In this document: in pieces, positions 39,655 through 61,416 of the stretch
How the letters are laid out: every line of letters begins with the position of its first letter
How positions within the stretch are numbered: position 1 is the first letter of the stretch
Virus record (IMG/VR): IMGVR_UViG_3300021962_000022
Length of the DNA stretch: 64,000 bases
Strand: one strand, 5' to 3'
From: a virus
Lineage: Duplodnaviria; Caudoviricetes
The notes under the pieces: generated by a model
Database searches by the model: none
Seen by the model: the letters and a program-made list of their open reading frames with translations, nothing else
What the model was told of the DNA's origin: nothing
Translations under genes and position numbers: made by a program

Positions 39655-39686
39655 TTTGGTATTCTAAAAATAATTGTATATATTTG
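39655..39686 (+). promoter_or_regulatory. Bacteroidota sigma70-type promoter for the RNA-repair genes
   Basis: TTTG (39655-58), 20-nt spacer, TATATTTG (39679-86). Confidence 0.7.
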
Positions 39687-39704
39687 TGATAAAATAATCT
39701 TAAA

Positions 39705-40118
39705 ATGGAATATACAAAAGATTTGATACTTGTTCGTGGTATCCCTGGCTCGGGTAAATCAACTTTGGGTGAGGTAATCCTATACATCCCAAACAACCCG
39801 TTGAAACCTTTATCTGCGGATGATTACTTTATGGATAAAGAGGGTAACTACAATTTCGACCCAACAAAAATTAGGGAAGCTCACAACGACTGCCAACAAA
39901 GATGTGCAAACCTGATGATGAATTCAGTTGTTAGGGTTGTAGTTTCAAATACATTTACACAAGAATGGGAAATGGAACCATATTTTGAAATGGCTCGTAG
40001 ATATGGTTATAGAGTCCACACTGTTATTGTTGAAAATAGACATGGTGGGTCTAACGTTCATGGTGTTCCTGAGGACAAATTAGAAATAATGAAAAATCGA
40101 TTTGAGGTCAAGTTGTGA
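39705..40118 (+). CDS. P-loop kinase (AAA_33 / polynucleotide kinase-like)
   Basis: LVRGIPGSGKST, SADDYF, VVVSNTF, NVHGVP. Confidence 0.85.
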   Translation: MEYTKDLILVRGIPGSGKSTLGEVILYIPNNPLKPLSADDYFMDKEGNYNFDPTKIREAHNDCQQRCANLMMNSVVRVVVSNTFTQEWEMEPYFEMARRYGYRVHTVIVENRHGGSNVHGVPEDKLEIMKNRFEVKL

Positions 40119-41185
40119 TAGATAGACTCGAAAAATATCATGAAGATGGGTTGTTAGTAAAACAAACCCACCCAACTAAAGATTTGTACATTTGGAATTA
40201 CACACCAAGAGTACAATATGAATCTTTATGGGATGATATTACTATGCAATGTCGTGGACTTATTACAACTCATTCGGGAGAAGTTATATCAAGACCATTC
40301 GGTAAGTTTTTTAATTATGAAGAGGTTATTGATAAGGATATGATTCCATGGGACAGTGAGTATGCTCATGTGCAAACAAAAATGGATGGTTCTCTCGGTA
40401 TACTATTTTTCTATGATGGTGAATGGATTATGTCGACAAGGGGTTCATTCACATCTGAACAATCAATTCGAGGATTAGAGATTCTAAAATCAAAATACGA
40501 TTTGGGGAGGTTTTCTAAAGAATTTACTTATCTATGTGAAATAATTTATCCTGAGAATAGAATCGTAGTAAATTACGGTGAGGATAAAATCACATTTTTG
40601 TCTATAACCACTCCTGAAGGAGAATTGAATTGGGCTACATCAAATTTGATATTTCACTCATCAAATATCAAGGAAGAAGATATTGTCAATAGTACTATGG
40701 TCACTTTTAATAAAGAAACTTTCGATACTTACAAAAAACTAAACTTACCAAATGAGGAGGGATTTGTCATTAGATTTTATCCATCTAATTTTAGGATGAA
40801 GATAAAATTTGAGGAGTATGTTCGTTTACATAGAATTTTAACCAACGTATCAAATAGAGATATTTGGGAAGTACTTCGTACCAATGGTGACATGAAAGAA
40901 ATACTTGATGGTGTACCAGATGAATTTTATGATTGGGTCCGTAAAACAAAAGAGGATTTATTATTCCAATACAAACACTTGGAACGTGAATACCAATGGA
41001 TTTTTAAAATCATAAATCGAGCCCCGAACATAGAAAATCGAGCTGTTTTCGCTGAGTACGCAAAGAGATATAAACACCCCTCAATATTGTTTAATATGTT
41101 AGATAATAAGGATTACTCCCAACAAATTTGGAAGTTGATTTATCCATCATATTCGAAACCATTTAAAACAAATGAAGAGAATTAG
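40115..41185 (+). CDS. RNA ligase, T4 Rnl1-like
   Basis: CRGLI, RPFGKFFN, KMDGSLG (adenylated Lys), EII, EGFV, MKIK. Confidence 0.9.
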   Translation: MIDRLEKYHEDGLLVKQTHPTKDLYIWNYTPRVQYESLWDDITMQCRGLITTHSGEVISRPFGKFFNYEEVIDKDMIPWDSEYAHVQTKMDGSLGILFFYDGEWIMSTRGSFTSEQSIRGLEILKSKYDLGRFSKEFTYLCEIIYPENRIVVNYGEDKITFLSITTPEGELNWATSNLIFHSSNIKEEDIVNSTMVTFNKETFDTYKKLNLPNEEGFVIRFYPSNFRMKIKFEEYVRLHRILTNVSNRDIWEVLRTNGDMKEILDGVPDEFYDWVRKTKEDLLFQYKHLEREYQWIFKIINRAPNIENRAVFAEYAKRYKHPSILFNMLDNKDYSQQIWKLIYPSYSKPFKTNEEN

Positions 41186-41612
41186 TAAGAAGAATTATAC
41201 AATGAAAACGAGAATTTATTTAGACGATGTAAGAACCCCCATCGAAAAAGACCAATGGGTTGTTGTTAGAAATTACGAAGAGTTTGTAAATAAAGTTAGT
41301 GAAATTGGTTTGGAGAACATATCTCTAATATCATTGGACCACGATTTAGGTGAAACAGCAATGGCCGAATGGCATCGTAATGTTTATCACCACTATGAGT
41401 TAGATTATGACAACATCTTGGAAAAAACCGGAATGGATTGTACCAAATGGTTGGTTGAACAATGGATGAATGGTAAACCCGTGGTTGACGTTGTTGTTCA
41501 TTCCGCAAACGCTATTGGTAGCGGTAATATGATGGGTTACATAAACAACTACAGACACATTAATCGACTACCTCAGAACTGTATTAGAGTTCAAATTGAA
41601 CATACTGTGTAA
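41172..41612 (+). CDS. Cyclic-phosphate-processing receiver-like domain protein
   Basis: IYLDDVRTP, SLDHDLG, KTGMDC..WL, VHSAN..G..NM; alternative start at 41202. Confidence 0.75.
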   Translation: MKRISKKNYTMKTRIYLDDVRTPIEKDQWVVVRNYEEFVNKVSEIGLENISLISLDHDLGETAMAEWHRNVYHHYELDYDNILEKTGMDCTKWLVEQWMNGKPVVDVVVHSANAIGSGNMMGYINNYRHINRLPQNCIRVQIEHTV

Positions 41613-41697
41613 AGGTTTTTCTAAACTTTTTGGTTAAAAGTTTGTTTGTGTCGGTTTTTATAGTCATATTTGTGATAAACCAAAAATTAAATCGACA

Positions 41698-42039
41698 ATG
41701 TCAACAAAAGAACCGAACAAACCAAAAGATACGGTAATTAAAAAACTCATACTAAAACAAGATTATAAAAACTTCAGTGATTTTTATAACATCAACAAAG
41801 AATCCATTTACAGAACCTTAGCAAATCTTTTTAAAAGTTTGAAGAGAAGGGATAAACAAGTGGTTATTTTAGTTTTGGGTGCTAAGATTAATGGACTACA
41901 ATGGGAAACCGAGCTAAAGTTTAAAAGACAAGAATCAGTTGTTTTAGTCAGGGATATTTTACCTTTCTTTGAACAAAATGAAGATTACGAAACTTGTGGA
42001 GAAATAACGGAAACCTACAATAAGATTTTAGAGATTTAA
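41698..42039 (+). CDS. Hypothetical protein
   Basis: 113 aa; preceded by TTTG-N20-CATATTTG. Confidence 0.65.
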   Translation: MSTKEPNKPKDTVIKKLILKQDYKNFSDFYNINKESIYRTLANLFKSLKRRDKQVVILVLGAKINGLQWETELKFKRQESVVLVRDILPFFEQNEDYETCGEITETYNKILEI

Positions 42040-44330
42040 TAAGACGAAGAGGATAAATTAGCATCACCTTTTACTATGTACTTAATATTGAAAATTAATG
42101 AAGTATTGGTAAAATTAATTGTGAAATTTGTCACTGGTTGTACGTTGTTAAAATTCGACAAAGTTAGGGAGTTGAAATCTGATGATGTGTACCAATACAC
42201 TTCGTTAAATGGTATCATTCCACTAATGTTTGCACCCAACAGATAAGCGTCTGAAATATTAATTTTACCGTCTTTATTTATGTCCCCTGCTTTCATTTTA
42301 GGACCGTTGTTAAGTACTAAACCCGGTTGAAGTTGGGTTGGGGTATTTTCATTTTGTGACTCATTAAAAACTTCATTAAAGTCATTTGATGTCAAAGATG
42401 GTGTGTACGTTGGTACAATCTTATACGTTGAATTATATTTGGTTGGGTTAAATGTGAATGAACCTGTTGCACCAACTATTGCGGTTTGCAGTAAAGTCTC
42501 GACCCCATTTTCAACCAAATAAAATTTTAATTCGGGTCTTACAGATAAACCTGAAGGGATAGTAACTGTTCCTGATATTGTTTCTGTTATTATCGTAACC
42601 GAACCTGAAGAACTAAATGCAAATCCACATGTCCCACTCTGTAATTGTGCTCTGAATAGAGTTTTTACGGATATGTTTGAATAAGACTGTGATGCGGTTG
42701 TATTCACAATATCGGTCCACGTAACACCGTCATTTGTTGACCTCTGCCATTTAACAATACTACCACTATACCCACTTAAAGTTAATGTTCCTGAGTTTGT
42801 TGTTGTGGTATGAATCGACGATGATACCGAACCACCAACAGGAGGTGTACCTGATGTCACGGTAATTGTTTTTGAGTCCGAATTAACTGCACTACCACAA
42901 TTTGGTGTTTGTACCTGAACTCGGTAATAATATGTTCCGGCTGAACTTAACGTTTGTGTTAAACTTGTAGTTGTGTTAGAAATATCTACCCAATTTATAT
43001 TGTCTGTTGAACGTTGCCATTTATTTACATTACCCTGTTGACCTGATAATGTTAGTTCTACTTGACCACCGGCACATATTGAATTATTAACAGCAAATAT
43101 GGTACCCGATTTTGTTGGTTTAACTGACAAGAATACACTTGACGTTGGTAAACTTGAGCAAGTTGTTGGACTAGTTGAATTCACAATCGCCCTATAGTAT
43201 GTTGTTTTAGTTAGATTAGTTACGGTAATAGTTGATGATGTACTTGATATTGTCGTACCAGCGGTAAAAAAGTTATCAAATGAAGATTCCCATCTCGCGA
43301 TACTACCTGTATATCCATTAAGTGTTAGTGTTGTACTATTACTACCTGAACAGACATTAATATCACCACCACTAATATACCCACTTGATGCCCCACTAAT
43401 TTCTAAATTTCTTGTTAATATGGTTGTACTTGTGGTGATGTCACCTGGCATGTCACCATATTCACAAATATATCCGGGTAGAGATGTGTTTGGTAAATCA
43501 TTCCATTGACCCGCATTACCTGAATAAAATTGACCGTAATGTTCTGCACCGGCATTATTAGGTTCCCCACCCGCCCATTTTGCATATTGACCTGTAACAG
43601 CGGTACTACCGTTAGAAAATTGAGTTCCCTTTTCAGGTCCTGTAACCCAATGCCACTTTTGTTCAACGGCAGCTTGTGATGCGAACGCGGTGGTACCTTT
43701 AGCGGTATTGACCACACCCATTTCATCTGAAGCACCAAACCAACCATCTGACGACATTAATTTCCAAATAAAATTATTTTCCGCCTCAGATGACATTGTT
43801 GCCAAATAACCCGCTCTACCAAAATATGAACGATTTTCTGCGGATGTTTTTGAATTTGTCCACGTTGTTGAACCGGAAACATATTCATAAAAATGTTCAG
43901 TTAATGGGTTGTAAAATACAATTCCCGCAACGAATGTTACTCTTCTTTGTAATGCGTAACAGGTAGAGGTTGTTGACCTAAATTCAACTCCTCTTAAAAC
44001 CGTTTCCCAATTTGAGGCGGTTGTTGTTCCATTAAAAACTAATACACCTGTGGTTGTATTGAATGCGGAAACAGTAATACCCGACGGTAAAGTCGCTGTT
44101 GACCTTAATTGGTCACCACTTGTACCACTTATGTAACTTTGAGATATTTGAACTCTAAACCCATTAATTGTACCATTTGCGGTCAAAGTAAGATTCGGGT
44201 CAACCGTTGTCCAAGTATTAAAACTTGCGGAAAGTGTGCCCGTACTCGATGTGCCTAAAGAAACTGATGTTGCTTGTGAGTAACCGAGAATCGGTAAAAT
44301 TAAAAGTAATATAATAATTAAATTTCTCAT
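42036..44330 (-). CDS. Exported multi-domain protein: C-type lectin-like, Ig-like repeats, dockerin-like C-terminus
   Basis: Signal peptide; YLATMSSEAENNFI..W.G...W..GEPNN..EHY...WNDL..YICEY; GDINKDGKINISDAYLL. Confidence 0.8.
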   Translation of the reverse strand: MRNLIIILLLILPILGYSQATSVSLGTSSTGTLSASFNTWTTVDPNLTLTANGTINGFRVQISQSYISGTSGDQLRSTATLPSGITVSAFNTTTGVLVFNGTTTASNWETVLRGVEFRSTTSTCYALQRRVTFVAGIVFYNPLTEHFYEYVSGSTTWTNSKTSAENRSYFGRAGYLATMSSEAENNFIWKLMSSDGWFGASDEMGVVNTAKGTTAFASQAAVEQKWHWVTGPEKGTQFSNGSTAVTGQYAKWAGGEPNNAGAEHYGQFYSGNAGQWNDLPNTSLPGYICEYGDMPGDITTSTTILTRNLEISGASSGYISGGDINVCSGSNSTTLTLNGYTGSIARWESSFDNFFTAGTTISSTSSTITVTNLTKTTYYRAIVNSTSPTTCSSLPTSSVFLSVKPTKSGTIFAVNNSICAGGQVELTLSGQQGNVNKWQRSTDNINWVDISNTTTSLTQTLSSAGTYYYRVQVQTPNCGSAVNSDSKTITVTSGTPPVGGSVSSSIHTTTTNSGTLTLSGYSGSIVKWQRSTNDGVTWTDIVNTTASQSYSNISVKTLFRAQLQSGTCGFAFSSSGSVTIITETISGTVTIPSGLSVRPELKFYLVENGVETLLQTAIVGATGSFTFNPTKYNSTYKIVPTYTPSLTSNDFNEVFNESQNENTPTQLQPGLVLNNGPKMKAGDINKDGKINISDAYLLGANISGMIPFNEVYWYTSSDFNSLTLSNFNNVQPVTNFTINFTNTSLIFNIKYIVKGDANLSSSSY

Positions 44331-46087
44331 AAATTTATCTTACTACCAACTAAGAAAAATGATAGAATTGGAAATTCAGGGTTTGTACTCATGTTCGCCT
44401 TATAGTTAACATTTAACTTAAAACGTTTTGAGATTTGATAGTCAAAACCACTACCAATAAAACCACTCACATATCTATCAGTTATTGATACGTTGTCTTT
44501 GGATGAATAAACTAAAGGTGTTGAAATAACATACAATTCGGGTGACACAATTAATTTTTTACCGACTTTAAATGGTCTTGTGTAAAAAGCGGTGATAGAT
44601 GGTGAATAATAACCATTCTTTTCTTCCGATATAATTGTCGCAGCAGCACTTACGTTAAAACCCGTAATACCATATTTTCCACCATTTAAAATACCACTAT
44701 AACCAATAAAACCTAAATAATTACCATAAGTGTAAACCCCTGTCAGGTTTATGTTATGAATGAACTTCAACTTTTTTGTTTTATTATAATGTATTTTAGT
44801 ATATTTTGTTGACACAGCAAACTGTTTGAAATTTAACCAAACCATACCAGTTACCCCATAACTTGATAAACCTGTCATTGATGATTTACTTGTCCCAATG
44901 TTTACTATTGGGGTAAACGTTCTATTCAAATTTTGAGCGGAGGTAACATCAGAAGAAACAATGATAGGGTTAGACCTCGCACCACCATTACTACCCGATT
45001 TACCTTTTCCACCACCACTTGAACCACCGGAACCACCCGCGTTATTATCGTTGTGGGCATCATTGTTCATTTGTGTTGTTGCACCAACTTCTTCACCTTG
45101 TTTTTGGGTGTTGTTTTGATTATTGTTCCCATTGGATGTACCTGTTCCACCATTATTTGAGTTTCCCGAACTACCGCTATTTCCTGTGGTGGTAGAACCA
45201 CCGGAACCTCCGTTATTACCTGAAGTTCCCGAACTTCCTGAACCATTATTTCCTGTGTTTGTTCCGTTGGTTGTTCCCGAACCACCTGTGGTGCTCGAAC
45301 CATTTGAACCTCCGTTATTTGATGAGGACCCATTTCCGTTATTAGAACCACCTGTAGACCCTGAACCACCGTTGTTCGAACCCGAATTGTTTGATGGGGA
45401 TGTCCCATTAGAGTTACCCGAACCTACAGACGGTTGAGTCGTTGAATTTCCCCCCTGAGTTGAGTTACCTGTACTTGATGACGTTCCTCCATTTGTTGAA
45501 TTTCCACTTCCTTGAGTCGAGTTACCTCCTCCATTTGTTGTATTAGTTCCTGAATTCGATTGGGATTGTCCTCCATTTTGAGTTGTACTATTATTCGTAG
45601 TATTTGATTGAGATGAATTACTTCCATTACCTTGGTTATTATTGTTTTTCTTCTTATCAGAACTTTTATTATCCTTACCACCAGCATCACTACTACCCGA
45701 CGAACCAGTTTCTAAACTAGATGATTGTGCTTGACTACTTGACAAAATCGAACTCACAACTGACTGAACCGTACTACCAATAATTTGGGCGGTTATTTGG
45801 TTTTGAGTTACCTGACCCTGTTGTTGTGAACATGGGTTTGTTTGTCTGTATGTGGTATAAACCTGATTTACCCAATTGGAAAATGTACCATTGGATAAAT
45901 CGTTCGCGTCAAAACTACCAACATTATTTAAAAAAATAATCATCGTTTTACCCCCCTGTATTGGTACACTAAATATTGTGACTTCTTTTGTACAGGGGTC
46001 TATAAAAGTATACGTTGATACTTGTGCTTTCGATACATTACATACGAAAGTAAGAAAAAATGTTAATATTAATGTCTTAATGTTCAT
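44327..46087 (-). CDS. Exported protein with Gly/Ser/Asn low-complexity linker and C-terminal beta-barrel-like region
   Basis: Signal peptide, ~230-aa G/S/N/T tract, amphipathic C-terminal strands. Confidence 0.75.
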   Translation of the reverse strand: MNIKTLILTFFLTFVCNVSKAQVSTYTFIDPCTKEVTIFSVPIQGGKTMIIFLNNVGSFDANDLSNGTFSNWVNQVYTTYRQTNPCSQQQGQVTQNQITAQIIGSTVQSVVSSILSSSQAQSSSLETGSSGSSDAGGKDNKSSDKKKNNNNQGNGSNSSQSNTTNNSTTQNGGQSQSNSGTNTTNGGGNSTQGSGNSTNGGTSSSTGNSTQGGNSTTQPSVGSGNSNGTSPSNNSGSNNGGSGSTGGSNNGNGSSSNNGGSNGSSTTGGSGTTNGTNTGNNGSGSSGTSGNNGGSGGSTTTGNSGSSGNSNNGGTGTSNGNNNQNNTQKQGEEVGATTQMNNDAHNDNNAGGSGGSSGGGKGKSGSNGGARSNPIIVSSDVTSAQNLNRTFTPIVNIGTSKSSMTGLSSYGVTGMVWLNFKQFAVSTKYTKIHYNKTKKLKFIHNINLTGVYTYGNYLGFIGYSGILNGGKYGITGFNVSAAATIISEEKNGYYSPSITAFYTRPFKVGKKLIVSPELYVISTPLVYSSKDNVSITDRYVSGFIGSGFDYQISKRFKLNVNYKANMSTNPEFPILSFFLVGSKINL

Positions 46088-46097
46088 AGTGTATATT

Positions 46098-46122
46098 AAA
46101 AAAGGGGTTTTACCCCCTTTTT
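46098..46122. terminator. Bidirectional terminator-like hairpin
   Basis: A6-GGGGT-TTT-ACCCC-C-T5. Confidence 0.7.
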
Positions 46123-46146
46123 ATTAGTATTATCAAACATTATTAA

Positions 46147-46932
46147 TTATTTAGGGAATACACCCTTTTTTATCATTCTTAATAGAATTCTAGAACATGC
46201 AATATCTAATGCTTTTTTGGTACTAATTCCTATTGTCGATTGATTAAATTTAACTTCACTTAAATTATCGTCATTTAGTAAACTTAATTCTCTAACGGTA
46301 ACCGATTCACCCAATCCACTAGCCGCAATTATTTGACCCGTTTCTGCATCGGTGAATCTAACTTGTAACCCTAATCTTGTAACAACAGTGTTTTTAACAC
46401 CATTACTAAGATTAACTGTCTCATCCTCACTCACTGAAAATTCATAAACTTCAATTGTAACAAAATAGTGTGCTAAACGTATTTTTCCTCTACCATTTAA
46501 AGTATCATAACTGATACCCGCTTGAGAAGCTTGGTATTGTTTCACCATTCTATTTTTGATTTCGGTTTTATCCTCAGTAAATGTGAATCTATTTAAATTC
46601 TCCAAATATTCTAATGTTATATTTGCCACACCTAAACCTACTTTCTTTTCTTTTAATTCAGGATATTGTTCATATACTTCATCACTGATTCCAATTTTTA
46701 GAATTTGTATTGGAATTTGTGGTCCGTCATAATCCATTAGTGAATCAATGCTCACATTAGTTTCAAACGATGCTTTATATTGTTCTGTTTGTGTTTTACC
46801 AACAACCTGTGCACTTACAGTATTGGCGAAGACAAACATCAATACAAACCATAGTATTATCAGAATTACTGGTGATAATAGTTTTTCTATGACAAATTTT
46901 TTCATTTTATTCGGGGTCTTGTATTTTACCAC
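46147..46932 (-). CDS. CsgG-like envelope protein
   Basis: Signal region; NRFTFTED, VTIEVYEFS, LGLQVRFTDAETGQIIAASG, KKALDIA resemble the CsgG family. Confidence 0.65.
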   Translation of the reverse strand: MVKYKTPNKMKKFVIEKLLSPVILIILWFVLMFVFANTVSAQVVGKTQTEQYKASFETNVSIDSLMDYDGPQIPIQILKIGISDEVYEQYPELKEKKVGLGVANITLEYLENLNRFTFTEDKTEIKNRMVKQYQASQAGISYDTLNGRGKIRLAHYFVTIEVYEFSVSEDETVNLSNGVKNTVVTRLGLQVRFTDAETGQIIAASGLGESVTVRELSLLNDDNLSEVKFNQSTIGISTKKALDIACSRILLRMIKKGVFPK

Positions 46933-47443
46933 ATTTCAAACATTCCAACTCACCGTCATTGTCTTGGTCACCCCAAACATGTTCGCATTGGCGATGTTCA
47001 AAATACTCATCAATTATACCATCGTTGTCATAATCTAAACCGTCCATAACACCATCACCATCTTCATCAATTTCAACACCAACTTTTGATGTTGACTCGG
47101 TGATTGGTTCGTTTTTGGTTTCATTATTTGATGATTTCATATCTGCGGTGTTTGAAAAAGAAACACCATCTTCCTCATCCATTTTTTGTACTAACATCTT
47201 ATCCTTATCGGTATCACTAAACCAATAGTCAATAATTTTACCATAAGAACCTATGAAAGCACCTAATAGTAGGAGAAGTAATTCTTTCCATTCACCACCG
47301 ATTTCATTTTTACCTATAATAGCCGCGAAAATTCCAGCCATGATAAACATAAAACCACCTAACACAATCGCGGTAATAAACCACCTTCTTTTCATCATTG
47401 CGTTAAGAAGGTCTCTAAATCCGGTTGGTTGATTGTTTACCAT
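46907..47443 (-). CDS. Two-TM membrane protein with Ca-binding-like DxDxDG repeats and C-terminal Zn ribbon
   Basis: Two hydrophobic helices; DEDGDGVMDGLDYDNDG; CEHVW..CLKCG. Confidence 0.7.
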   Translation of the reverse strand: MVNNQPTGFRDLLNAMMKRRWFITAIVLGGFMFIMAGIFAAIIGKNEIGGEWKELLLLLLGAFIGSYGKIIDYWFSDTDKDKMLVQKMDEEDGVSFSNTADMKSSNNETKNEPITESTSKVGVEIDEDGDGVMDGLDYDNDGIIDEYFEHRQCEHVWGDQDNDGELECLKCGKIQDPE

Positions 47444-53942: not shown

Positions 53943-53980
53943 GTTTTTTAAGATTTTCGCTCTTATATTTTGATTATATT

Positions 53981-54003
53981 TGTTCTTTGACATATTGGTT
54001 TAA
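53981..54003 (+). promoter_or_regulatory. boxA-like antitermination element
   Basis: Identical to 50882-50904. Confidence 0.6.
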
Positions 54004-54009
54004 GTAGAT

Positions 54010-54094
54010 GCCGAGGTGATGGAATGGTAGACATGAGGGACTTAAAATCCCTTGGACAGTAATGTTCGTGTGGGTTCGACTCCCATCCTCGGTA
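54010..54094 (+). tRNA. tRNA-Leu(TAA)
   Basis: AGGGA-CT TAA AA-TCCCT; long variable arm. Confidence 0.95.
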
Positions 54095-54097
54095 CAA

Positions 54098-54300
54098 AAG
54101 AAACATCCTTACAGAAGGTGATAATGCTTCACTGAAAGGACTACTGACTTCCAAGTGGGTCGCAACCACAATCGGAAGGTACGACACGGCTCAGTAGACT
54201 CTGTAATGGACCCTGATCTATGGTGCACACATAACAGGTGATGGGGAACAAACCATCGGTAAAATCTAAACCTACGGTGAGCGTAGAAGGATTGTTTCTT
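54098..54300 (+). ncRNA. Unassigned ~200-nt multi-helix RNA E
   Basis: AAGAAACA-TCCT/AGGA-T-TGTTTCTT ends; TACAGA/TCTGTA; CTACTGA/TCAGTAG; CTTCC/GGAAG; CCTG/CAGG; GATGG/CCATC; CTACG/CGTAG. Confidence 0.65.
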
Positions 54301-54306
54301 TTTTTT

Positions 54307-54380
54307 GTCTCCGTAGCTCAGTTGGATAGAGCAACAGCCTTCTAAGCTGTGGGTCATTGGTTCGAATCCAATCGGGGATA
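54307..54380 (+). tRNA. tRNA-Arg(TCT)
   Basis: ACAGC-CT TCT AA-GCTGT. Confidence 0.95.
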
Positions 54381-54382
54381 CT

Positions 54383-54522
54383 AAGATAGTGGTCACTCTT
54401 ACAATGAAAGTCGACAAAGTAGTTGTAAGGTTCATAGTGTTCAGCACCCTCGGCCAGTGCACTGATAAAACTCAGAAGAAGCCGTTAAGATTGGAGCGAG
54501 ATGGGTACTCCATCACTATCTT
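54383..54522 (+). ncRNA. Unassigned ~140-nt structured RNA F
   Basis: AAGATAGTG/CACTATCTT ends; CTTACAA/TTGTAAG enclosing GAA...AGTA; TCAG-CAC/GTG-CA-CTGA; TGGAG/CTCCA. Confidence 0.6.
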
Positions 54523-54527
54523 TTTAT

Positions 54528-54600
<73 letters not shown>

Positions 54601-54605
54601 CACAA

Positions 54606-54677
54606 TCCTCGATAGCTCAGCGGTAGAGCACACGGCTGTTAACCGTGTGGTCGTTGGTTCGAATCCATCTCGGGGAG
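54606..54677 (+). tRNA. tRNA-Asn(GTT)
   Basis: CACGG-CT GTT AA-CCGTG. Confidence 0.93.
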
Positions 54678-54753
54678 CAAAAAAATCGCTGATAGAAACA
54701 TCGAAGGTGTACAATGCTAGCAACACCGTAGGTTAAGCGATATCCTACAATAG

Positions 54754-54834
54754 GCCTTGGTGGTGGAATGGTAGACACGCTAGTCTTAGGAACTAGTGGC
54801 GAAAGTCGTGTCGGTTCGAGTCCGACCTGAGGTA
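54754..54834 (+). tRNA. tRNA-Leu(TAG)
   Basis: CTAGT-CT TAG GA-ACTAG; long variable arm. Confidence 0.95.
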
Positions 54835-54840
54835 CAAAAT

Positions 54841-54923
54841 TGAAAGGTGGGTGAGTGGTTAAAACCGACAGACTGTAAATCTGTTCTCTTTGGAGTACGG
54901 CGGTTCGAATCCGTCCCTTTCAA
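54841..54923 (+). tRNA. tRNA-Tyr(GTA)
   Basis: ACAGA-CT GTA AA-TCTGT; long variable arm. Confidence 0.95.
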
Positions 54924-54936
54924 CAAAAATATTAAT

Positions 54937-55491
54937 ATGGGAACTAGAAGTAAAAAAATTTCAGAGATGTTATCAAACATAACACCTGAAATGAAAGAGA
55001 AATGGAAACAAGAAAGAGTTGAGAGTAAAAAGAAATTAACTCTTGAATATCAACTTGGTTACTATGTTGGTTTGGAGATTGTTCACAGATATCTACCAAC
55101 ACTTTCCACAGATATGTTACAATCTCGTACCGTGATTGAAGTTTCTGAAGAAGATACTTTAGAAAATGAAAGATTGGATACCGAATGGTATTCAACAACA
55201 ACACACGGTGGAGAATGGAATGGTGTTGATGAAAATGGTAATAAAGAAAAATGGGAGTTGTACCATCAACACAATAAGATGTTAGAGAGGAAATACCTAC
55301 CAAATCCATTAGAGTGTTACATGAGTTTATTAAATGTTCAAAACATGGATGAATTTAAAAAAGGTTTAAGGTTCGCTTTGTGGGATTGTGATATGTGTTC
55401 ATACAATATTGAACCTGAAAACATAAAAATTTACGATGATGAACAATCAATGTTTACAATCATCGAATTACAATTAGATTCAGTGGTGTAG
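54937..55491 (+). CDS. Hypothetical protein within the tRNA array
   Basis: In frame with ORF-track 54847; true start likely ATG 54937 (MGTRSKK) after tRNA-Tyr; stop lies inside the next tRNA. Confidence 0.75.
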   Translation: MGTRSKKISEMLSNITPEMKEKWKQERVESKKKLTLEYQLGYYVGLEIVHRYLPTLSTDMLQSRTVIEVSEEDTLENERLDTEWYSTTTHGGEWNGVDENGNKEKWELYHQHNKMLERKYLPNPLECYMSLLNVQNMDEFKKGLRFALWDCDMCSYNIEPENIKIYDDEQSMFTIIELQLDSVV

Positions 55492-55558
55492 CTCAATTGG
55501 TGAGAGCAGGACTCTTATACAGTCAAGGTTATGGGTTCAAATCCCGTCATCACTACCA
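55482..55558 (+). tRNA. tRNA-Ile(TAT), CCA encoded
   Basis: GACT-CT TAT AC-AGTC; acceptor AGTGGTG/CATCACT. Confidence 0.85.
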
Positions 55559-55581
55559 ATTATCGTCGATTTGAACGATAC

Positions 55582-55655
55582 GGTCCCTTAGCTCAGTTGG
55601 TTAGAGCAACTGACTCATAATCAGTAGGTCCACGGTTCAAGCCCGTGAGGGACCA
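55582..55655 (+). tRNA. tRNA(CAT), Ile2-like (lysidine type) or elongator Met
   Basis: ACTGA-CT CAT AA-TCAGT; body GGTCCCTTAGCTCAG..TTAGAGCA..GACTCATAATC resembles bacterial Ile2 tRNAs. Confidence 0.85.
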
Positions 55656-55682
55656 CGGAGATATTTATATAATAAAAAAACT

Positions 55683-56054
55683 ATGGGAATTGAATTAAAA
55701 AAGAAAAAACAACTTATTGAAAGATTAAATAAAAGATTATTATCTGAAGCTGAGATGGAATGCCCCAAATCAACAAAAGATACTGAACTTAACGACACCA
55801 ATAAGAAAAAAATCGAAAAGACACATCAGTACGGATTACCAACTGAAGAAGCAAAAGAAAAAAATCAAAATTGTGGAAATTGTGTTGCGTTTGATATTTC
55901 ATCAAGAATGAAAGATTGTATGAGTGATAATAGTGGTGAAATTGGTTATTGTTGGATGCACCACTTTATGTGTTCAGGAAAAAAATGGTGTGACACATGG
56001 GTTGAAGGTGGTCCAATCACAAAAGATTCTGTTTCATACGAAAAACAACAATAA
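55683..56054 (+). CDS. Cys-rich protein with HiPIP-like cysteine spacing
   Basis: NCGNCVAF...GYCWMHHFMC...WCDTW; TATTTATA upstream. Confidence 0.65.
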   Translation: MGIELKKKKQLIERLNKRLLSEAEMECPKSTKDTELNDTNKKKIEKTHQYGLPTEEAKEKNQNCGNCVAFDISSRMKDCMSDNSGEIGYCWMHHFMCSGKKWCDTWVEGGPITKDSVSYEKQQ

Positions 56055-56117
56055 ATGTAGTCGTACCCTTAACTCCAAAACTCACCTATGAGTCTCCGTT
56101 ATGGGAAGGCTACTCCC

Positions 56118-56190
56118 GCGGAAATAGCTCAGTTGGTAGAGCATCACCTTGCCAAGGTGAGGGTCGCGAGTTCGAGTCTCGTTTTCCGCT
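56118..56190 (+). tRNA. tRNA-Gly(GCC)
   Basis: TCACC-TT GCC AA-GGTGA; U73. Confidence 0.95.
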
Positions 56191-56259
56191 CTAAGTAAAC
56201 CTTAAAAAGGGCCCTTCCGTTGGTACGACAACGGCTTGTTGGGCCCGGGTTTACTTTTT

Positions 56260-56331
56260 GCGAATATCGTATAATGGTCATTACTCCTTCCTTCCAAGTA
56301 GGAGATGTCGGTTCGATTCCGGCTATTCGCT
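56260..56331 (+). tRNA. tRNA-Gly(TCC)
   Basis: CCTTC-CT TCC AA-GTAGG (one mismatch); U73. Confidence 0.9.
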
Positions 56332-56384
56332 CAATCATTATAGAGACTACTAAATCGGGTTAGTGAGAATCTATTTGTTATTAT

Positions 56385-56455
56385 TGTCCTGTGGTGTAAC
56401 GGCAGCACATCTGGTTTTGGTCCAGAGAATTGAGGTTCGAATCCTTGCGGGACAA
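56385..56455 (+). tRNA. tRNA-Gln(TTG)
   Basis: TCTGG-TT TTG GT-CCAGA. Confidence 0.92.
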
Positions 56456-56493
56456 CAAAATTTTTAAATCATAAAAAAACCAATATGTCGAGA

Positions 56494-56581
56494 GGAAAGT
56501 TACCCAAGTTGGTGAAGGGGACGGTTTGCTAAACCGTTAGGTCGAGTAATCGGCGCGAGGGTTCGAGCCCCTCACTTTCCG
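56494..56581 (+). tRNA. tRNA-Ser(GCT)
   Basis: ACGGT-TT GCT AA-ACCGT; long variable arm. Confidence 0.95.
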
Positions 56582-56612
56582 CAAAATACTTATAACTAGA
56601 ATAATATGTAAT

Positions 56613-57074
56613 ATGACAAAATTTAGAACATTGTACGGAACACCCATAACTGACGTTATTGGTTACATCAAAGATTATTTGGTGGATAAAACTGATGTTG
56701 AGATATTAATTGGTTCGGATTCACAATCATTTAGTAATTCAAAAACGGTTTATGGAGTGGTTATTGCACTTTACACAACAGGTAAGGGTGCACACGTATT
56801 ATGTACTAAAGACGTTACACCATTTGAAAAAGATACATCAAGTAGATTAATGACCGAAGTTTGGAAAGCTGTTGAAGTTGCTGAACATTTGAGAAATAAT
56901 GGTTTACCAAAAGCCACATGGATTGATATAGACTTAAATCCTGACCCAAGATATAAATCAAACAAAGTTTTAAGACAAGCGGTTGGTTTGGTTGAGGGTA
57001 TGGGATACAAGGTAAGATACAAACACGCAGGTGCTATGGTGACTTACAGTGCAAACCATTTGGTAAGAATTTAA
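56613..57074 (+). CDS. RNase H-like protein, YkuK/DUF458 family
   Basis: ILIGSDSQ, GKGA, RLMTEV..AVEVA, IDIDLN..KSN, C-terminal A.H. Confidence 0.75.
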   Translation: MTKFRTLYGTPITDVIGYIKDYLVDKTDVEILIGSDSQSFSNSKTVYGVVIALYTTGKGAHVLCTKDVTPFEKDTSSRLMTEVWKAVEVAEHLRNNGLPKATWIDIDLNPDPRYKSNKVLRQAVGLVEGMGYKVRYKHAGAMVTYSANHLVRI

Positions 57075-57102: not shown

Positions 57103-57133
57103 CTTGTTTTTTAAAAAAAGTTTCTTACCTTTG
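57103..57133 (+). promoter_or_regulatory. Bacteroidota sigma70-type promoter of the 690-aa protein / RNA-array operon
   Basis: CTTG (57103-06), 19-nt spacer, TACCTTTG (57126-33). Confidence 0.8.
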
Positions 57134-57171: not shown

Positions 57172-59244
57172 ATGACAACAAGAAATTTAGTTGCATTTCA
57201 AAAGAATTTGGTGTGTTCACCAAACGACGGTCAAGATAACAGAATCGCCGTAGCAACCGTACAATCCCACCTAATGCAATGGGGTTACATGTTAGACGAA
57301 GACGCTTTCTTCGCATTATCCAAATCAGATTTATCGTTTATTCAAAACTTCAATGACGAAGTGTTGAATCATTTGAAAAATGTAATGGGGGGTAATCGTA
57401 ATTACCAACCTTTATATAAAAATTTCCCACAAGAAGTAATGGTTATGTCCGACTTCGAATTGTACATGAACGCAATCATGCACTATTGGAGTAACGGTCA
57501 ATGGGAACCATCCACCCATACTTATGAGAAAGAAATCAAGTTTGAAAAAATCAAATACAACTTGATTAAGTATGGTACTTCGGAAAGATTCTCAAAAATT
57601 TTCACTGATTTAGTGTCAATAAACACATCATTAACTCCTCAAGACCTTGAGATTGTTAAATGGTTTGTTGAGAGTGGTGAAACATTGGTCTTCCCTGACA
57701 CAATTCCCTTTAAAGAGAACTTGTGTACATTGGCGGCCATGGGAATCGCGGGATTACCAGTTAAGACTTCAACCGATGTGTTAAGAATCGCCGTTCATCT
57801 TTCAGGTGGTGATATCAGTTTACCAAAAGTTCCTGAAAAGGAAATTAGAGCAAACAGATGGACTACTCAAAGGATTACAAATCCCGAAAGAGAAAAGTTT
57901 AAATTCAAGAAATTCTCTCGTAAAGAAAGAAAATACATCTTGGGTTTACTTGAGAACACAAACTGCGACCCACGTGAAATGGTTTTAAGAGACCAACGTT
58001 GGGTTCGTTTAGGTGAAATATTACACCCCGGTGAATATAAAAACCAATTCCCTAAGTCTTTCGAGGCCTTCAACAAAATCCGAAACGAGAAAGTAAAATC
58101 TTGGTTCGCACTTGTTAATGAAGGTTTCAATAAAGGGTTAGAGAATGGTTTGAGAGTATTGTCTCAAAGACCCGGTGAATTCTCTCGTAGAATGGATTGG
58201 TTGGTTCGTACATATCCAAAAGATATCGAACTAATTATGAAGTTCTTCGGGGAAGTGGTAAAAGGTACATCAAACAAAGTATTGTTTGAGGTTTACACTC
58301 ACTTTGAAAATCGTACTGAACCTGTAGATAATAGGTCTATTATGATTAAAGGAGCGAGAAAACGTACCACGTTACCATCACTACCAGCAATCCCTAAAGA
58401 AATTGTGGAAACCATCCACTCTAAATTATTTGAAACACTTAGAGATAAGTTTTCGGTAATGGAATCTTTAGGTAACTGTTGGATTGATGAGGAATTGAAA
58501 AAAATTCCTTTACCAACCAACATGAGAAGTATGAACTTCTCAACTAAACCAACAATCAGAGGTCAAAGAGTTCCACTTGAAAACCCTGATGCAAAAGTTA
58601 TCAGACCGTTTGTTCATTGGATGGATAAACGTGGTAGCGAAGACTTGGATTTAAGTGTTACGTTTGTTGGTGAAAAAGTGTCAGAAGTATTATCTTTCAG
58701 TAACTTGAGAGTTGGTAAATCTTGTCACTCAGGGGACGTGAGACATAGACAGGGTCCTTGTGCCGAGTACATCGACATCGATATCCAAGATGCGTTAAAA
58801 CAAGGATTCAAATACGCCGTTATTGACGTGAGAAACTTCAATGGTGGTACTTTGAGTTCACTTGAAACATCTTTTGGTATCATGGAACGAGAACATCCTG
58901 AATCAAACAAAACATGGTTACCTGAAACAATTTCAAATTGTCAATCATTGGAATCGGCGTCGTCAAACACATTGATTTCTATTATTGACCTTGAAACTAA
59001 GGAGTACATCATGTTGGATGTTGATTCATCAGGTTTCGTTACCGCGAGAGGTGACTTCAAAAACACACTGAAAGTAATTCAACAATACGCGGAATTACCA
59101 AAAGTAAGTGTTTATGACCTTATTCTTCTACACGTAGAAGGTCGAGGAAAACAAGTTACTCTTGATGAAAATGTCGACGTACATTTTAAGTACGAGGACT
59201 TCTGTTACTCTTATGAAGAGACAGGTAAATTGATGGGTGTCTAA
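57172..59244 (+). CDS. 690-aa protein: helical N-terminal region (possible Ro60/TROVE-like) plus C-terminal TerD-like domain
   Basis: C-terminal DLDLSV..HSGDVR..CAEYIDIDI..YAVIDVRNF resembles TerD; the TROVE-like call for the N-terminus is inference from size, helicity and the adjacent RNAs. Confidence 0.65.
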   Translation: MTTRNLVAFQKNLVCSPNDGQDNRIAVATVQSHLMQWGYMLDEDAFFALSKSDLSFIQNFNDEVLNHLKNVMGGNRNYQPLYKNFPQEVMVMSDFELYMNAIMHYWSNGQWEPSTHTYEKEIKFEKIKYNLIKYGTSERFSKIFTDLVSINTSLTPQDLEIVKWFVESGETLVFPDTIPFKENLCTLAAMGIAGLPVKTSTDVLRIAVHLSGGDISLPKVPEKEIRANRWTTQRITNPEREKFKFKKFSRKERKYILGLLENTNCDPREMVLRDQRWVRLGEILHPGEYKNQFPKSFEAFNKIRNEKVKSWFALVNEGFNKGLENGLRVLSQRPGEFSRRMDWLVRTYPKDIELIMKFFGEVVKGTSNKVLFEVYTHFENRTEPVDNRSIMIKGARKRTTLPSLPAIPKEIVETIHSKLFETLRDKFSVMESLGNCWIDEELKKIPLPTNMRSMNFSTKPTIRGQRVPLENPDAKVIRPFVHWMDKRGSEDLDLSVTFVGEKVSEVLSFSNLRVGKSCHSGDVRHRQGPCAEYIDIDIQDALKQGFKYAVIDVRNFNGGTLSSLETSFGIMEREHPESNKTWLPETISNCQSLESASSNTLISIIDLETKEYIMLDVDSSGFVTARGDFKNTLKVIQQYAELPKVSVYDLILLHVEGRGKQVTLDENVDVHFKYEDFCYSYEETGKLMGV

Positions 59245-59272
59245 ACCCACCCATCAGTTCTTTGAAATACTA

Positions 59273-59672
59273 TATGTGGCTATGTGAGCCATTGAGAGGA
59301 TAGTCAACTGCCCATCACACCAAACCACGAGGTGGTTCTGTTTTGGGCCTTAGCGGTGACAAAAGTATCAATGCAAACGTCTTACTTCTAACATACAACT
59401 ATCAGATACATCGTTAGACACACAATCTCCACATAAACTTCTTTGACGGCTATGTACTAAGTTACTTCTAGCTAAACAATTGGATGTTATCACACTTGTA
59501 CCCTTTCCGTCTACCATCTTAAGTGGCTATCTACCAACTTACTTCTATATTATATCAGATAAAATAAAAATTAGTTGTAGTCTTTCCACTTTAAAAATCT
59601 TAATGGCTATGTGATTAGTTACTTCTAACTTTGACTGATTATCAAACCAACGATACTAACACAATTCCCATT
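59273..59672 (+). ncRNA. Tandem array of four bulged-stem RNAs (Y/Yrl-like candidates)
   Basis: Units 59273-435, 59445-511, 59522-590, 59602-672 share invariant GGCTAT and TTACTTCTA with compensatory stem changes; boxA-like GTTCTTTGAAAT at 59257-68. Confidence 0.8.
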
Positions 59673-59700
59673 TTTAAAAACAACATTTAAAACAACAATT

Positions 59701-60150
59701 ATGGCAACAAAAACAACAACCGACGAAAAAGTTAAACAACTGTTTGACCTCGTACAAGAAAAAAAATTAGCAATTGAAAAGGCGGAAAGACCTTGTTGGA
59801 AAACAAGTTGTAATTTCGGATTTTCAGCAAATTCTGCACACGACAGAACATCAATTCCATTAGTAACTGATGTTCGTAAACTTGTAGAAATGTACGCTTT
59901 CTTGATGGAAAGACGTGATAAATCTGAAAGTGCAGCAAAAGAGCTTGGAGTTGATTACAACTTCACTTGGTTAGGATTTACCGTAGAAGAATGGAAAGAT
60001 GATTTCCAAACTCGAGTAAATCAAATTTCAATTCAAGAAAAACGTAAAGAACTCGCCGAATTAGAATCTCGTTTGAATGCAATTATTTCACCCGAATTAA
60101 AAGCACAAATGGAATTAGAGGCAATTGAAAAATTATTGAGTTCTAAGTAA
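59701..60150 (+). CDS. Hypothetical protein, last gene of the RNA-array operon
   Basis: 149 aa, C-terminal coiled coil. Confidence 0.8.
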   Translation: MATKTTTDEKVKQLFDLVQEKKLAIEKAERPCWKTSCNFGFSANSAHDRTSIPLVTDVRKLVEMYAFLMERRDKSESAAKELGVDYNFTWLGFTVEEWKDDFQTRVNQISIQEKRKELAELESRLNAIISPELKAQMELEAIEKLLSSK

Positions 60151-60212
60151 AAACTTTTCTTGGTTTAGTAAAATCAAGTGGTGGAGTCGTACCGAAAAAC
60201 CGGTCGTCCTGT

Positions 60213-60241
60213 TAAGGGGTTGGGCAACTAACCCCTTTTTT
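60213..60241 (+). terminator. Rho-independent terminator
   Basis: GGGGTTG-GGCAAC-TAACCCC plus T run. Confidence 0.8.
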
Positions 60242-60272
60242 AAATAAAATAATTTATATATATTTACAATAT

Positions 60273-60992
60273 ATGAGAATAGTTTGTATATCCGATACCC
60301 ACTCTTTGCATCCGTATATGTCACATGACATACCGAATGGTGATATATTAATACATTCTGGTGATTGTACAAATATTGGTGAAGAAAATGATGTTCGTGA
60401 GTTTATTACTTGGTTCCAAAATATTCAGGGATTTAGTCATAAAATTTTTATTGCGGGAAATCATGATTTTGCATTTGAAAGAGAACCTTCATGGTTAAAT
60501 CTCTACATTGACCCAAATATTTTAACAGAACACAATGTAACATATTTGGAAGACGGTGAATTAGAGATTGTAAGTTCCGAATTTTCGAGACCGATAAAAA
60601 TATACGGTAGTCCATGGCAACCTGAATTTTATGATTGGGCATTTAACTTACCGAGAAATGGTGAGGTTTTAGCATCAAGATGGGCGGACATACCTGATAA
60701 TACAGATATCTTAATCACCCATGGACCTCCACACGGTATTAGAGACTTTACTCCCACAAATTTACAAGTGGGATGTGAGTTACTGAGAAGTAGGGTTTTT
60801 GAAATAAGACCGTTATTACATGTTTTTGGACATATACACGGTGCTTATGGTGGTGTTGAGGTAGACGGTATCACTTTCGCAAACGCATCAATTTGTACTG
60901 AAAGATATAAACCAACTAATAAACCATTAGTTTTTGATTTAACAGAAAATAATGGTAATTTTACAATTACATACGTAGACGAAGAAAATTAA
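60273..60992 (+). CDS. Calcineurin-like metallophosphoesterase
   Basis: ISDTH, HSGD, IAGNHD, THGPP, VFGHIH. Confidence 0.93.
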   Translation: MRIVCISDTHSLHPYMSHDIPNGDILIHSGDCTNIGEENDVREFITWFQNIQGFSHKIFIAGNHDFAFEREPSWLNLYIDPNILTEHNVTYLEDGELEIVSSEFSRPIKIYGSPWQPEFYDWAFNLPRNGEVLASRWADIPDNTDILITHGPPHGIRDFTPTNLQVGCELLRSRVFEIRPLLHVFGHIHGAYGGVEVDGITFANASICTERYKPTNKPLVFDLTENNGNFTITYVDEEN

Positions 60993-61019
60993 TTATCTTT
61001 GTTTCGTTCTTTGATTTAT

Positions 61020-61416
61020 GGGGGTGTATGGAATTGATTGGCATTGATATTCTAAATGGGCACGTAGTCGGACTTCATCTACGACTTAAATCTACGGTGG
61101 AAAAATTCAAACGGCAACGTTTACAACAACATGGAAGTAGCAGGTCTTCTTGCAACTTCTAAAGTTGCTGCCTAATCGGTAGTAACTAACGGGTCGATGG
61201 ACACATAACCTTGGAACAGAAGTCCTTACAGTGTAATACCACTTAGAGTGTTAGGAGAATGGCCTGATTGTCTCTTTAAATTATAGTCAGGAACAGGTTT
61301 GTTGTTTTTCTGTATATGAAATCAAATATTTGTTGGTTGTGAATAACCAAATAAACGTGTAGTCCATTTATGGTATGATGAGCAAGACGCGGGTTCGAAA
61401 CCCGCCACCTCCACCA
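61020..61416 (+). ncRNA. ssrA: tmRNA
   Basis: Acceptor GGGGGTG/CACCTCC with G3:U70 and ACCA end, T arm GCGGG-TTCGAAA-CCCGC, internal tag frame 61113-61175 (GNVYNNMEVAGLLATSKVAA*); TATCTTTG box at 60994-61001. Confidence 0.93.

Follow-up and report, generated by a model that had tools for sequence, protein, structure and literature searches.

Positions 39655 to 61416 of a 64,000-nucleotide (nt) stretch of DNA, hereafter the window, from the IMG/VR virus record IMGVR_UViG_3300021962_000022 (Caudoviricetes; record of 116 kb, CheckV completeness 38%) carry a kinase, RNA ligase and cREC operon, two tRNA operons, a YkuK-type RNase H-fold gene, a gene for a 690-amino-acid (aa) protein followed by structured RNAs, a metallophosphoesterase gene and a transfer-messenger RNA (tmRNA) gene. 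We think it probable that the region serves an uncultivated freshwater jumbo phage of Bacteroidota as a translation-support island, built of at least five self-contained units which would act in parallel and not as one circuit. The strongest result of the analysis was a pair of predicted trp-style leader-peptide attenuators, each of which would gate one of the tRNA operons. Relatives of the phage, many of whose contigs are fragments, are denoted below by L and G numbers.

Each tRNA operon was found to open with an exact host-type promoter, a short open reading frame (ORF) and a strong terminator, laid out as follows.

50590 to 50620, plus strand: promoter of tRNA operon 1, exact Bacteroidota-type, with a core invariant in 13 relatives.
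50652 to 50741, plus strand: leader ORF 1, 29 codons (MIRSTHTMSFTICSKWAEVADICMSRGVL), conserved in 13 distinct relatives.
50767 to 50796, plus strand: attenuator terminator 1 (terminator scan), whose 5' arm alternatively pairs with 50724-50732 in the leader ORF.
50806 to 53180, plus strand: tRNA operon 1, with Ala(UGC, weak), Phe, Lys, Val, Trp, Arg(ACG), Cys, His, Ile(GAU), Met, Thr, Asp, Ser(UGA) and Glu.
51429 to 51860: 143-aa ORF inside tRNA operon 1.
53733 to 53762, plus strand: promoter of tRNA operon 2, exact Bacteroidota-type.
53780 to 53884, plus strand: leader ORF 2, 34 codons (MMNLVYIQQPSNNPLSGNGRGIYLCGPSSELNKL), conserved in 11 relatives.
53910 to 53940, plus strand: attenuator terminator 2 (terminator scan), whose 5' arm alternatively pairs with 53858-53869 in the leader.
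53982 to 56582, plus strand: tRNA operon 2, after a boxA-like site, with Leu(UAA), Arg(UCU), Pro, Asn, Leu(UAG), Tyr, Ile(UAU), Met, Gly(GCC), Gly(UCC), Gln and Ser(GCU), and ORFs interspersed among the tRNAs.
54202 to 54264, plus strand: freshwater-1 RNA motif between tRNA-Leu(UAA) and tRNA-Arg(UCU) (RF02979, 71.6 bits against a cut-off of 72, E 2e-15).

The codons of each leader ORF matched the tRNAs of the operon behind it. In leader 1, 26 of 29 sense codons are read by tRNAs of operon 1 and 6 by those of operon 2, with all 14 tRNAs of its own operon represented; similarly, 28 of the 34 sense codons of leader 2 are read by operon-2 tRNAs and 8 by operon-1 tRNAs, again with every one of its own 12 tRNAs represented. 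The match extended to synonymous choice, with TCA/TCG, CGC/CGA and ATC/ATT used in leader 1 for Ser(UGA), Arg(ACG) and Ile(GAU), and AGT, AGA and ATA in leader 2 for Ser(GCU), Arg(UCU) and Ile(UAU). As a null, segments drawn at random from ORFs of this phage matched at 17.9 +/- 2.9 codons (leader 1) and 14.7 +/- 3.2 codons (leader 2); none of 200,000 samples reached the 28 matches of leader 2. All tRNAs of operon 1 were covered by 0 of 20,000 samples, and all those of operon 2 by 1.3%. Most of the codons without a match are found from the terminator-pairing segment onwards, where a stalled ribosome could not induce read-through.

When the full leader was folded, the start of the ORF paired with its end (1:2) and the terminator (3:4) formed (z -6.5); when the 3' arm of the terminator was withheld, the end of the ORF paired instead with the 5' arm of the terminator (2:3). 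In the 13 distinct relatives with leader 1 and the 11 with leader 2, conservation extends over the ORFs, the segments that pair and the terminators, and in the relatives 21-30 of the 29-31 codons of leader 1 match their own operon. In the alignment of leader 1, the only one for which pairs were counted, 88-91% of cells were paired compared to 37-52% with slid partners, and 98.8% of cells were paired in terminator 1. Antiterminator 1 showed one compensatory change from CG to UA, a synonymous C to T in the leader being matched by a G to A in the terminator arm. Together the leaders displayed what marks an attenuator, namely a short ORF between promoter and intrinsic terminator, mutually exclusive pairings that overlap the ORF and an enrichment for codons linked to the product. 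A metatranscriptome contig of a close relative (run X17, positions 53778-54340, depth 91) starts 2 nt 5' of the leader-2 start codon and crosses terminator 2 into tRNA-Leu, freshwater-1 and tRNA-Arg, consistent with the operon-2 promoter and with read-through; tRNA depth in the metatranscriptome runs is contaminated by tRNAs of other organisms.

The codon matching and the alternative RNA folds are established, and from them we infer the regulatory outcome and its trigger. Fast reading of a leader would have ribosomes cover the antiterminator segment, so that the terminator would form and few tRNAs would be made. Slow decoding of any leader codon, which may stem from a cleaved, scarce or uncharged host tRNA, would allow the antiterminator to form and the tRNA operon to be transcribed. 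Since each leader names the codons served by the operon behind it, we propose that supply tracks demand and that the control shuts itself off. The architecture resembles that of trpL, hisL and the multivalent ilvGMEDA and thr leaders in its promoter, short ORF, exclusive 1:2, 2:3 and 3:4 hairpins and U-tract terminator, and in having regulatory codons which name what the operon supplies. It differs from them in that the genes controlled are tRNAs and not enzymes, that the run of one codon is replaced by a census of 12-14 different codons, and that the element is viral, with a Bacteroidota host. No published case of such leader-peptide control of tRNA genes was found in the literature. The stall-sensing control of the tRNAs, which the original prediction had offered as putative, thus proved better supported than had been claimed, with two codon-matched attenuators behind it.

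Attenuators of this kind sense decoding speed regardless of its cause, and this agrees with a different account of the island, in which tRNAs, tmRNA and repair genes sustain translation as an AT-rich phage outruns the host tRNA pool and host RNA decays, that is, a compensation for codon usage and host shut-off. The attenuators would in that case merely fit tRNA output to the codon demand of the phage, and we hold both this narrower role and the wider account as possible, if less so than the demand-sensing support island favoured here. Minimal arrays of relatives retain tRNAs for A-ending codons, as codon compensation would have it, and huge phages generally carry tRNAs, tmRNA and SmpB (PMC7162821); against it, sets for all 20 amino acids exceed the needs of codon bias, and the kinase, ligase and cREC operon described below has no obvious use unless RNA ends are cut.

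The predicted count of 26 tRNAs was borne out, ARAGORN calling 25 and Rfam adding a weak one at 50806-50875 (31.8 bits). By eye the latter is a tRNA-Ala(UGC) with G3:U70, and ARAGORN called tRNA-Ala(UGC) at the same position in relatives; with it, the 26 tRNAs cover all 20 amino acids. In the sub-lineage of this phage (also L022, L002 and L005) this first tRNA has a short D-arm and a weak acceptor stem, and in other relatives it is canonical; it may be decaying. The number of tRNAs among relatives ranges from 2 to 28, and the minimal arrays retain Lys(UUU), Glu(UUC), Leu(UAA) and Arg(UCU). Such U34 tRNAs are typical nuclease targets, and their retention speaks for the layered counter-defence of the original prediction, in which early co-expressed modules would detect, repair and replace cut tRNAs and clear stalled ribosomes in the face of host anticodon nucleases. 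Against that proposal stands the range of tRNA number itself (2-28) beside a constant repair operon. In some relatives tRNAs with stop-codon anticodons were seen (CUA, called 'Pyl' by ARAGORN, and UUA; L026 16558-16632 and L069 5173-5250), and these are possible suppressor tRNAs. The freshwater-1 motif reached 72.5 bits in L138, and RNA-library contigs span 54202-54264.

The Bacteroidota-type promoter pattern (TTG, 16-21 nt, TAnnTTTG) was found in exact form before four units, at 39656, 50590, 53733 and 57104. Across the whole window there were 17 such promoters compared to 9.6 +/- 2.5 in shuffled sequence, and as this excess is only modest the argument rests on the positions of the promoters. 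A sigma-70 promoter scan returned fewer sites than in shuffles and was therefore uninformative for this type of host. The original prediction had placed most units behind host-type promoters, and this stood for the four units with exact matches; at the tmRNA there is only a -7 box, at 60993. A second shared element is a 23-nt box (TGTTCTTTGACATATTGGTTTAA), which lies 5' of the first canonical tRNA in both operons and is invariant in relatives. Its core GTTCTTTGA, which we take to resemble the boxA of ribosomal RNA (rrn) operons, occurs five times on the plus strand within 10.5 kb (50883, 52368, 53982, 59257 and 61006; 1.4 expected per whole window): one copy precedes each of the two tRNA operons, another lies within operon 1, and the RNA array and the tmRNA each have one on their 5' side. 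The presence of boxA-like sites before every stable-RNA unit suggests that host Nus antitermination factors may be used. A boxA 14-mer was found 337 nt upstream of a Rhodobacteraceae 16S gene, the only such case in 80 loci and from a scan too unspecific to build on.

The repair operon lies at the left end of the region, and its features, with the gene upstream, are these.

37496 to 39514, plus strand, outside the region: ClpA/ClpB/ClpC-like double AAA+ ATPase (Pfam AAA_2, AAA_lid_9, ClpB_D2-small, UVR).
39656 to 39686, plus strand: Bacteroidota-type promoter of the repair operon, an exact match to the pattern.
39705 to 40118, plus strand: polynucleotide-kinase-type P-loop kinase, 137 aa (AAA_33 1e-12, 49 bits; phrog_2071 5e-40; phrog_505 'polynucleotide kinase' 3e-8).
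40115 to 41185, plus strand: T4 Rnl1-family RNA ligase (PF09511 1e-16, 61.7 bits; phrog_562 1e-63).
41172 to 41612, plus strand: cREC protein (PF20274, 78.8 bits against a cut-off of 27).
41698 to 42039, plus strand: fourth cassette gene, 113 aa, phage-only, found 3' of cREC in 34 related loci.

The predicted kinase and RNA ligase genes are present, and the three core genes overlap, the ligase start with the kinase stop (40115-40118) and the cREC gene with the 3' end of the ligase by 14 nt (41172-41185). The kinase translation shows a P-loop, GIPGSGKST, and an ADDY motif. Aligned to T4 Rnl1 (2c5u), the ligase has TKMDGSL (TKEDGSL in T4), EGFV and MKIKFEEY at motifs I, IV and V, so that the motif I lysine (KxDGSL) is present and the Rnl1 adenylyltransferase motifs are intact. 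The cREC protein keeps its acidic residues (YLDDV, SLDHD), and in 44 of 80 loci its gene lies no further than 10 kb from Rnl1. The original prediction had called this gene cyclic-phosphate receiver-like, which holds only as a name of the fold; the protein is predicted to act as an enzyme and not to detect. The role predicted for it is that of a 2',3'-cyclic-phosphate phosphoesterase (PMC7824862), and cREC is described as uncharacterised in PMC7824862 and PMC9503650.

A neighbourhood of T4-like ligase, cREC and nucleotide kinase was read by Iyer et al. as serving the clean-up and ligation of 2',3'-cyclic ends (PMC7824862, PMC9503650), and the operon found here, with the three genes overlapping, matches that predicted end-healing-and-sealing neighbourhood for tRNA. 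The kinase would phosphorylate 5'-OH ends, cREC would open 2',3'-cyclic phosphates and Rnl1 would seal broken tRNA anticodon loops. It differs from the neighbourhoods of Iyer et al. in having no sirtuin, MazG or 2H partner nearby and in being always flanked by the ClpC-like ATPase and the 113-aa gene. Likewise, the operon resembles T4 Pnkp and Rnl1, which repair PrrC-cleaved tRNA-Lys, in its intact-motif ligase and Pnk-type P-loop kinase, and differs in that T4 Pnkp has a HAD 3'-phosphatase domain; by Pfam, PHROG and its translation the 137-aa protein is a kinase domain only, with no fused HAD DxDxT 3'-phosphatase.

The order ClpC-like ATPase, kinase, Rnl1, cREC and 113-aa gene is fixed in about 35 related loci. 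In distant relatives kinase and Rnl1 stay about 2 kb or less apart, and cREC drifts or is lost. In L159, a close relative on a 170-kb contig, cREC directly follows the kinase (3661-4493) and Rnl1 is missing. The NCBIfam ClpB and ClpA models match the ATPase below their cut-offs, and ClpP was not found in the phage's own record, which is 38% complete. No match to Pfam, PHROG or PADLOC was obtained for the 113-aa protein, its Atlas neighbours are all viral and unnamed, and Atlas gave a weak UVR-like lead (an EDYETCGEI helix). In all close relatives the UVR-motif ClpA/B/C-like ATPase and this UVR-like protein bracket the repair operon, and the two may be an unfoldase-adaptor pair.

Downstream of the repair operon an opposite-strand block of large proteins, one with a type IX secretion system (T9SS) C-terminal sorting domain, occupies 42036-50491. 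It is absent in L015, L017, L018 and L023, where the repair operon abuts the tRNA region.

The right-hand part of the region holds the following features.

56613 to 57074, plus strand: YkuK/DUF458 RNase H-fold gene (PF04308, 61 bits).
57104 to 57133, plus strand: promoter of the 690-aa gene, exact Bacteroidota-type.
57172 to 59244, plus strand: 690-aa protein with a ZorC-EH-like helical N-terminal part and a C-terminal TerD (AlphaFold model, pLDDT 79).
59257 to 59676, plus strand: boxA-like site and four structured RNA units (about 59272-59434, 59441-59517, 59518-59597 and 59598-59676).
59701 to 60150, plus strand: 149-aa helical protein, always 3' of the RNA array (phrog_2574; synteny in 22 of 23 loci whose DNA reaches that far).
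60214 to 60237, plus strand: terminator closing the 690-aa, RNA and 149-aa unit (terminator scan).
60273 to 60992, plus strand: MPPED2-like (class III) metallophosphoesterase (PF00149; PDB 3rl4, E 3e-53; PADLOC candidate PDC-S10, 266 bits).
60993 to 61416, plus strand: -7 box (60993), boxA-like site (61006-61014) and tmRNA (61020-61416).
61420 to 61450, no strand assigned: two-way terminator after the tmRNA (terminator scan).

The RNase H-like gene of the original prediction is thus present. Its start lies 30 nt beyond the last tRNA, and the gene is therefore probably the final one of operon 2. In L012, L013, L021, L026, L069 and L073 it is found next to tRNA arrays or within them, even at 42% identity. 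The YkuK/DUF458 family is one of predicted, uncharacterised RNase H-fold nucleases (PMC3985635), and the gene may act in the processing of tRNA precursors.

Between the 690-aa and 149-aa genes every relative has 2-8 RNA units, each with an invariant GGCUAU, a loop beginning UUACUUCUA, and UUUCC. Compensatory changes were seen in 11 of 13 pairs, and this covariation per unit is the only convincing structural evidence for the array, the fold of the whole array being not unusually stable (z -1.2). A covariance model of the units, searched against 1.1 Mb of related DNA, matched only loci with the 690-aa gene. The units correspond to no family in Rfam, GOLLD and freshwater-1 included. The original prediction had named this a Y-like RNA operon; the RNAs are real, and the label found no support, as Rfam Y RNA and YrlA models gave no match in 59245-59700 (YrlA hits fell only on true tRNAs) and the 690-aa protein has neither TROVE nor vWA. 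An identity of that protein as Ro60-like was rejected, no TROVE or vWA domain being hit in Pfam even at E 5 and the fold being helical plus TerD; nor was TROVE found in the phage's own record (38% complete), G000 or G002. A likeness to Ro60-Y RNA (Rsr/YrlA) systems lies in the succession of a large protein gene and an array of small covarying stem-loop RNAs. In G003 (C1:114734-116647), which is more distantly related and has no 690-aa gene, SmpB is directly preceded by a true TROVE (Ro60-type) gene.

The 690-aa protein belongs to a large, uncharacterised family (1,390 hits). The C-terminus of its model is matched by the TerD structures 2qz7 and 2kxt, and its matches in the AlphaFold database are TerD proteins and one protein auto-named 'ZorC EH domain' (33% identity, residues 1-471); PADLOC gave no ZorC hit, and the NCBIfam model RING_SCO0854 fell below its cut-off, with the RING itself absent. 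The 149-aa protein has a helical model for which no structural match was returned. The order of 690-aa gene, RNAs, 149-aa gene, phosphoesterase and tmRNA holds over 23 loci, and on the simplest reading the 690-aa protein, the 2-8 RNAs and the 149-aa protein probably form a ribonucleoprotein. In the riverine metatranscriptome X17, contigs over the 690-aa gene (57509-59509) had depths of 245-630 compared to 0-4 over the 42-50 kb block, and the uncovered stretches (that block, and the units after 59510) are not evidence of silence.

In relatives, some units lie within tRNA-like molecules (41-48 bits with the Rfam tRNA model; an anticodon-arm insert of 55-65 nt), which recalls the tRNA-like domain of YrlA with a different topology, the unit here being in the anticodon arm of the tRNA-like RNA. 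Such genes were seen at the end of the RNA array in L145 (6328-6456), L158 (6049-6185), L146 (10705-10827) and L147 (8306-8435). By eye the unit follows position 37 of a Tyr(GUA)-like loop in L145 and of an Asn(GUU)-like loop in L158, and in L146 it lies inside the 5' strand of the anticodon stem. We regard as very improbable a reading in which the GGCUAU...UUACUUCUA units are intron-like modules and kinase, cREC and Rnl1 rejoin the cleaved RNAs, a phage pathway of the tRNA-splicing type. Under it, the units placed by eye in the Tyr(GUA)-like and Asn(GUU)-like loops would occupy the canonical 37/38 position, the 690-aa and 149-aa proteins would be recognition or cleavage partners, and kinase, cREC and Rnl1 would have the same three activities, all predicted, as the eukaryotic tRNA-splicing ligase Trl1. 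If it were true, the operon would serve a splicing-type pathway rather than damage repair only.

The predicted metallophosphoesterase (PF00149) and tmRNA were both confirmed. The phosphoesterase, in which the metal-binding motifs DxH, GD and GNHD were read, is closest to mammalian MPPED2 (3rl4), and opening of 2',3'-cyclic ends or breakdown of cyclic-nucleotide signals are conceivable roles for it. The genes that consistently adjoin it are those of the 149-aa protein and the tmRNA, and not that of the ligase. The tmRNA, with its tRNA-like end, was recognised by Rfam (RF00023, 90.5 bits against a cut-off of 47), ARAGORN having missed both it and the tRNA-Ala here, and its tag was read as GNVYNNMEVAGLLATSKVAA by homology to the ARAGORN call in L021. 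Contigs in the RNA libraries of three studies span it with near-identical sequence, and two of these contigs start at 61029. It would rescue stalled ribosomes with SmpB, which is encoded by several relatives (G002, G003, G004 and G008); of the five largest relatives, three have both tmRNA and SmpB and two have neither. Huge phages carry tRNAs, tmRNA and SmpB (Al-Shayeb et al. 2020, PMC7162821), and the present case resembles those in its one-piece tmRNA, its tag frame ending in AA and the SmpB of several relatives, and differs in the long tag (20 aa), in the boxA-like site upstream and in the group I intron of some relatives. In L015 (18948-19535) such an intron splits the tmRNA gene in the T-loop (GGGTT^CGAAACCC), as verified in the sequence, and the same intron model matches the same tmRNA slot in L140, L144, L146 and L151, where the interruption is taken from the hits.

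The gene identities, the synteny and the presence in RNA libraries are established, and the island is real and conserved in the lineage. The same RNA ligase is encoded on more than 200 related IMG/VR contigs, DNA runs of 9 studies (marine, estuary and freshwater metagenomes) contain half or more of the words sampled from the region, and a megablast of the region against GenBank phages gave only tRNA-sized matches. The gene order persists at identities as low as 73% for the 690-aa protein and about 52% for Rnl1, which counts against a third account, rather improbable to our minds, in which tolerance of the tRNA region for insertions is all that brought the elements together and they have no common function. 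Further against it, every element is RNA-related, unlike random cargo, the stable-RNA units have the boxA-like site in common, and the repair operon, both tRNA operons and the 690-aa gene have the promoter type in common. An insertion hot-spot would account for the 8.5-kb surface-protein block that is present or absent among relatives and for the exchanges at given slots, such as GOLLD, the group I introns in tmRNA and GIY-YIG-like ORFs in the RNA array. These last, which resemble homing endonucleases, lie between the 690-aa and 149-aa genes in L158 (about 4497-5145) and L146 (about 10920-11500) and fit a hot-spot for mobile elements. In L021 (6363-6767) a GOLLD RNA (315 bits) lies between the YkuK-like gene and the tmRNA and fills the exact slot of the 690-aa, RNA, 149-aa and phosphoesterase block. 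GOLLD and freshwater-1 (RF02032, RF02979) are orphan structured RNAs of freshwater and phage DNA near tRNA genes, the latter here within operon 2.

Whether the units form one machine is a separate matter from whether the island exists. For integration there are the shared promoter type and boxA-like sites, one theme and the stable gene order; all units are RNA- or translation-related within 22 kb, four have host-type promoters, and in G002 SmpB and tmRNA flank the 690-aa and phosphoesterase block, SmpB lying between the YkuK-like gene and the 690-aa gene, directly upstream of the latter. The counter-defence toolkit is also a published concept for jumbo phages (PMC7824862). Against integration there are the separate transcription units, each module's own promoter and the 8.5-kb opposite-strand block between repair operon and tRNAs. 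The original prediction had named co-occurrence across related genomes as a check, and the modules vary independently: tRNA number swings as given above, the 690-aa module is swapped for GOLLD in L021 and absent from G003, G004 and G005, and the YkuK-like gene, cREC (absent in G005) and Rnl1 (missing in L159) are each lost on their own. The large relatives G006-G010 are 67-80% complete and two of them stop inside the tRNA array, so what they lack does not count as evidence. No regulator common to the modules and no nuclease target was identified, and nothing found here connects the 690-aa protein with its RNAs, the RNase H-fold gene or the phosphoesterase with damaged tRNA. As the modules vary independently and have their own promoters, a single layered counter-defence is unproven; it is a plausible hypothesis, and an unlikely one on the evidence of these relatives.

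Some observations also weigh against the island of parallel units and its attenuators as favoured here. The covariation of the attenuators is thin, with one clear compensatory pair, because the relatives are close. Leader content lags behind tRNA loss, L015 retaining leader 2 with only 4 tRNAs and L132 retaining Phe, Lys and Val codons for tRNAs that were not called. The RNA-library contigs are neither proof of transcription nor a map of ends. No Bacteroidota rrn leader was found among the 80 loci checked, no 3'-phosphatase for the repair pathway was recognised in the operon by Pfam or PHROG, and a search for SmpB in the phage's own record (38% complete) gave none.

It has long been asked why large phages carry tRNAs, with codon bias set against the replacement of tRNAs destroyed by host defences. 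The idea of a toolkit adds little beyond the published work on jumbo phages. In the present island the demand-sensing attenuators stand out most, and second to them the new covarying RNA family, which is tied to a TerD/ZorC-like protein and which is set, with freshwater-1 and, in a relative, GOLLD, in one boxA-marked transcriptional context. A leader on a tRNA operon that lists the operon's own codons, if it gates as proposed, would mean that the phage measures decoding speed and answers it.

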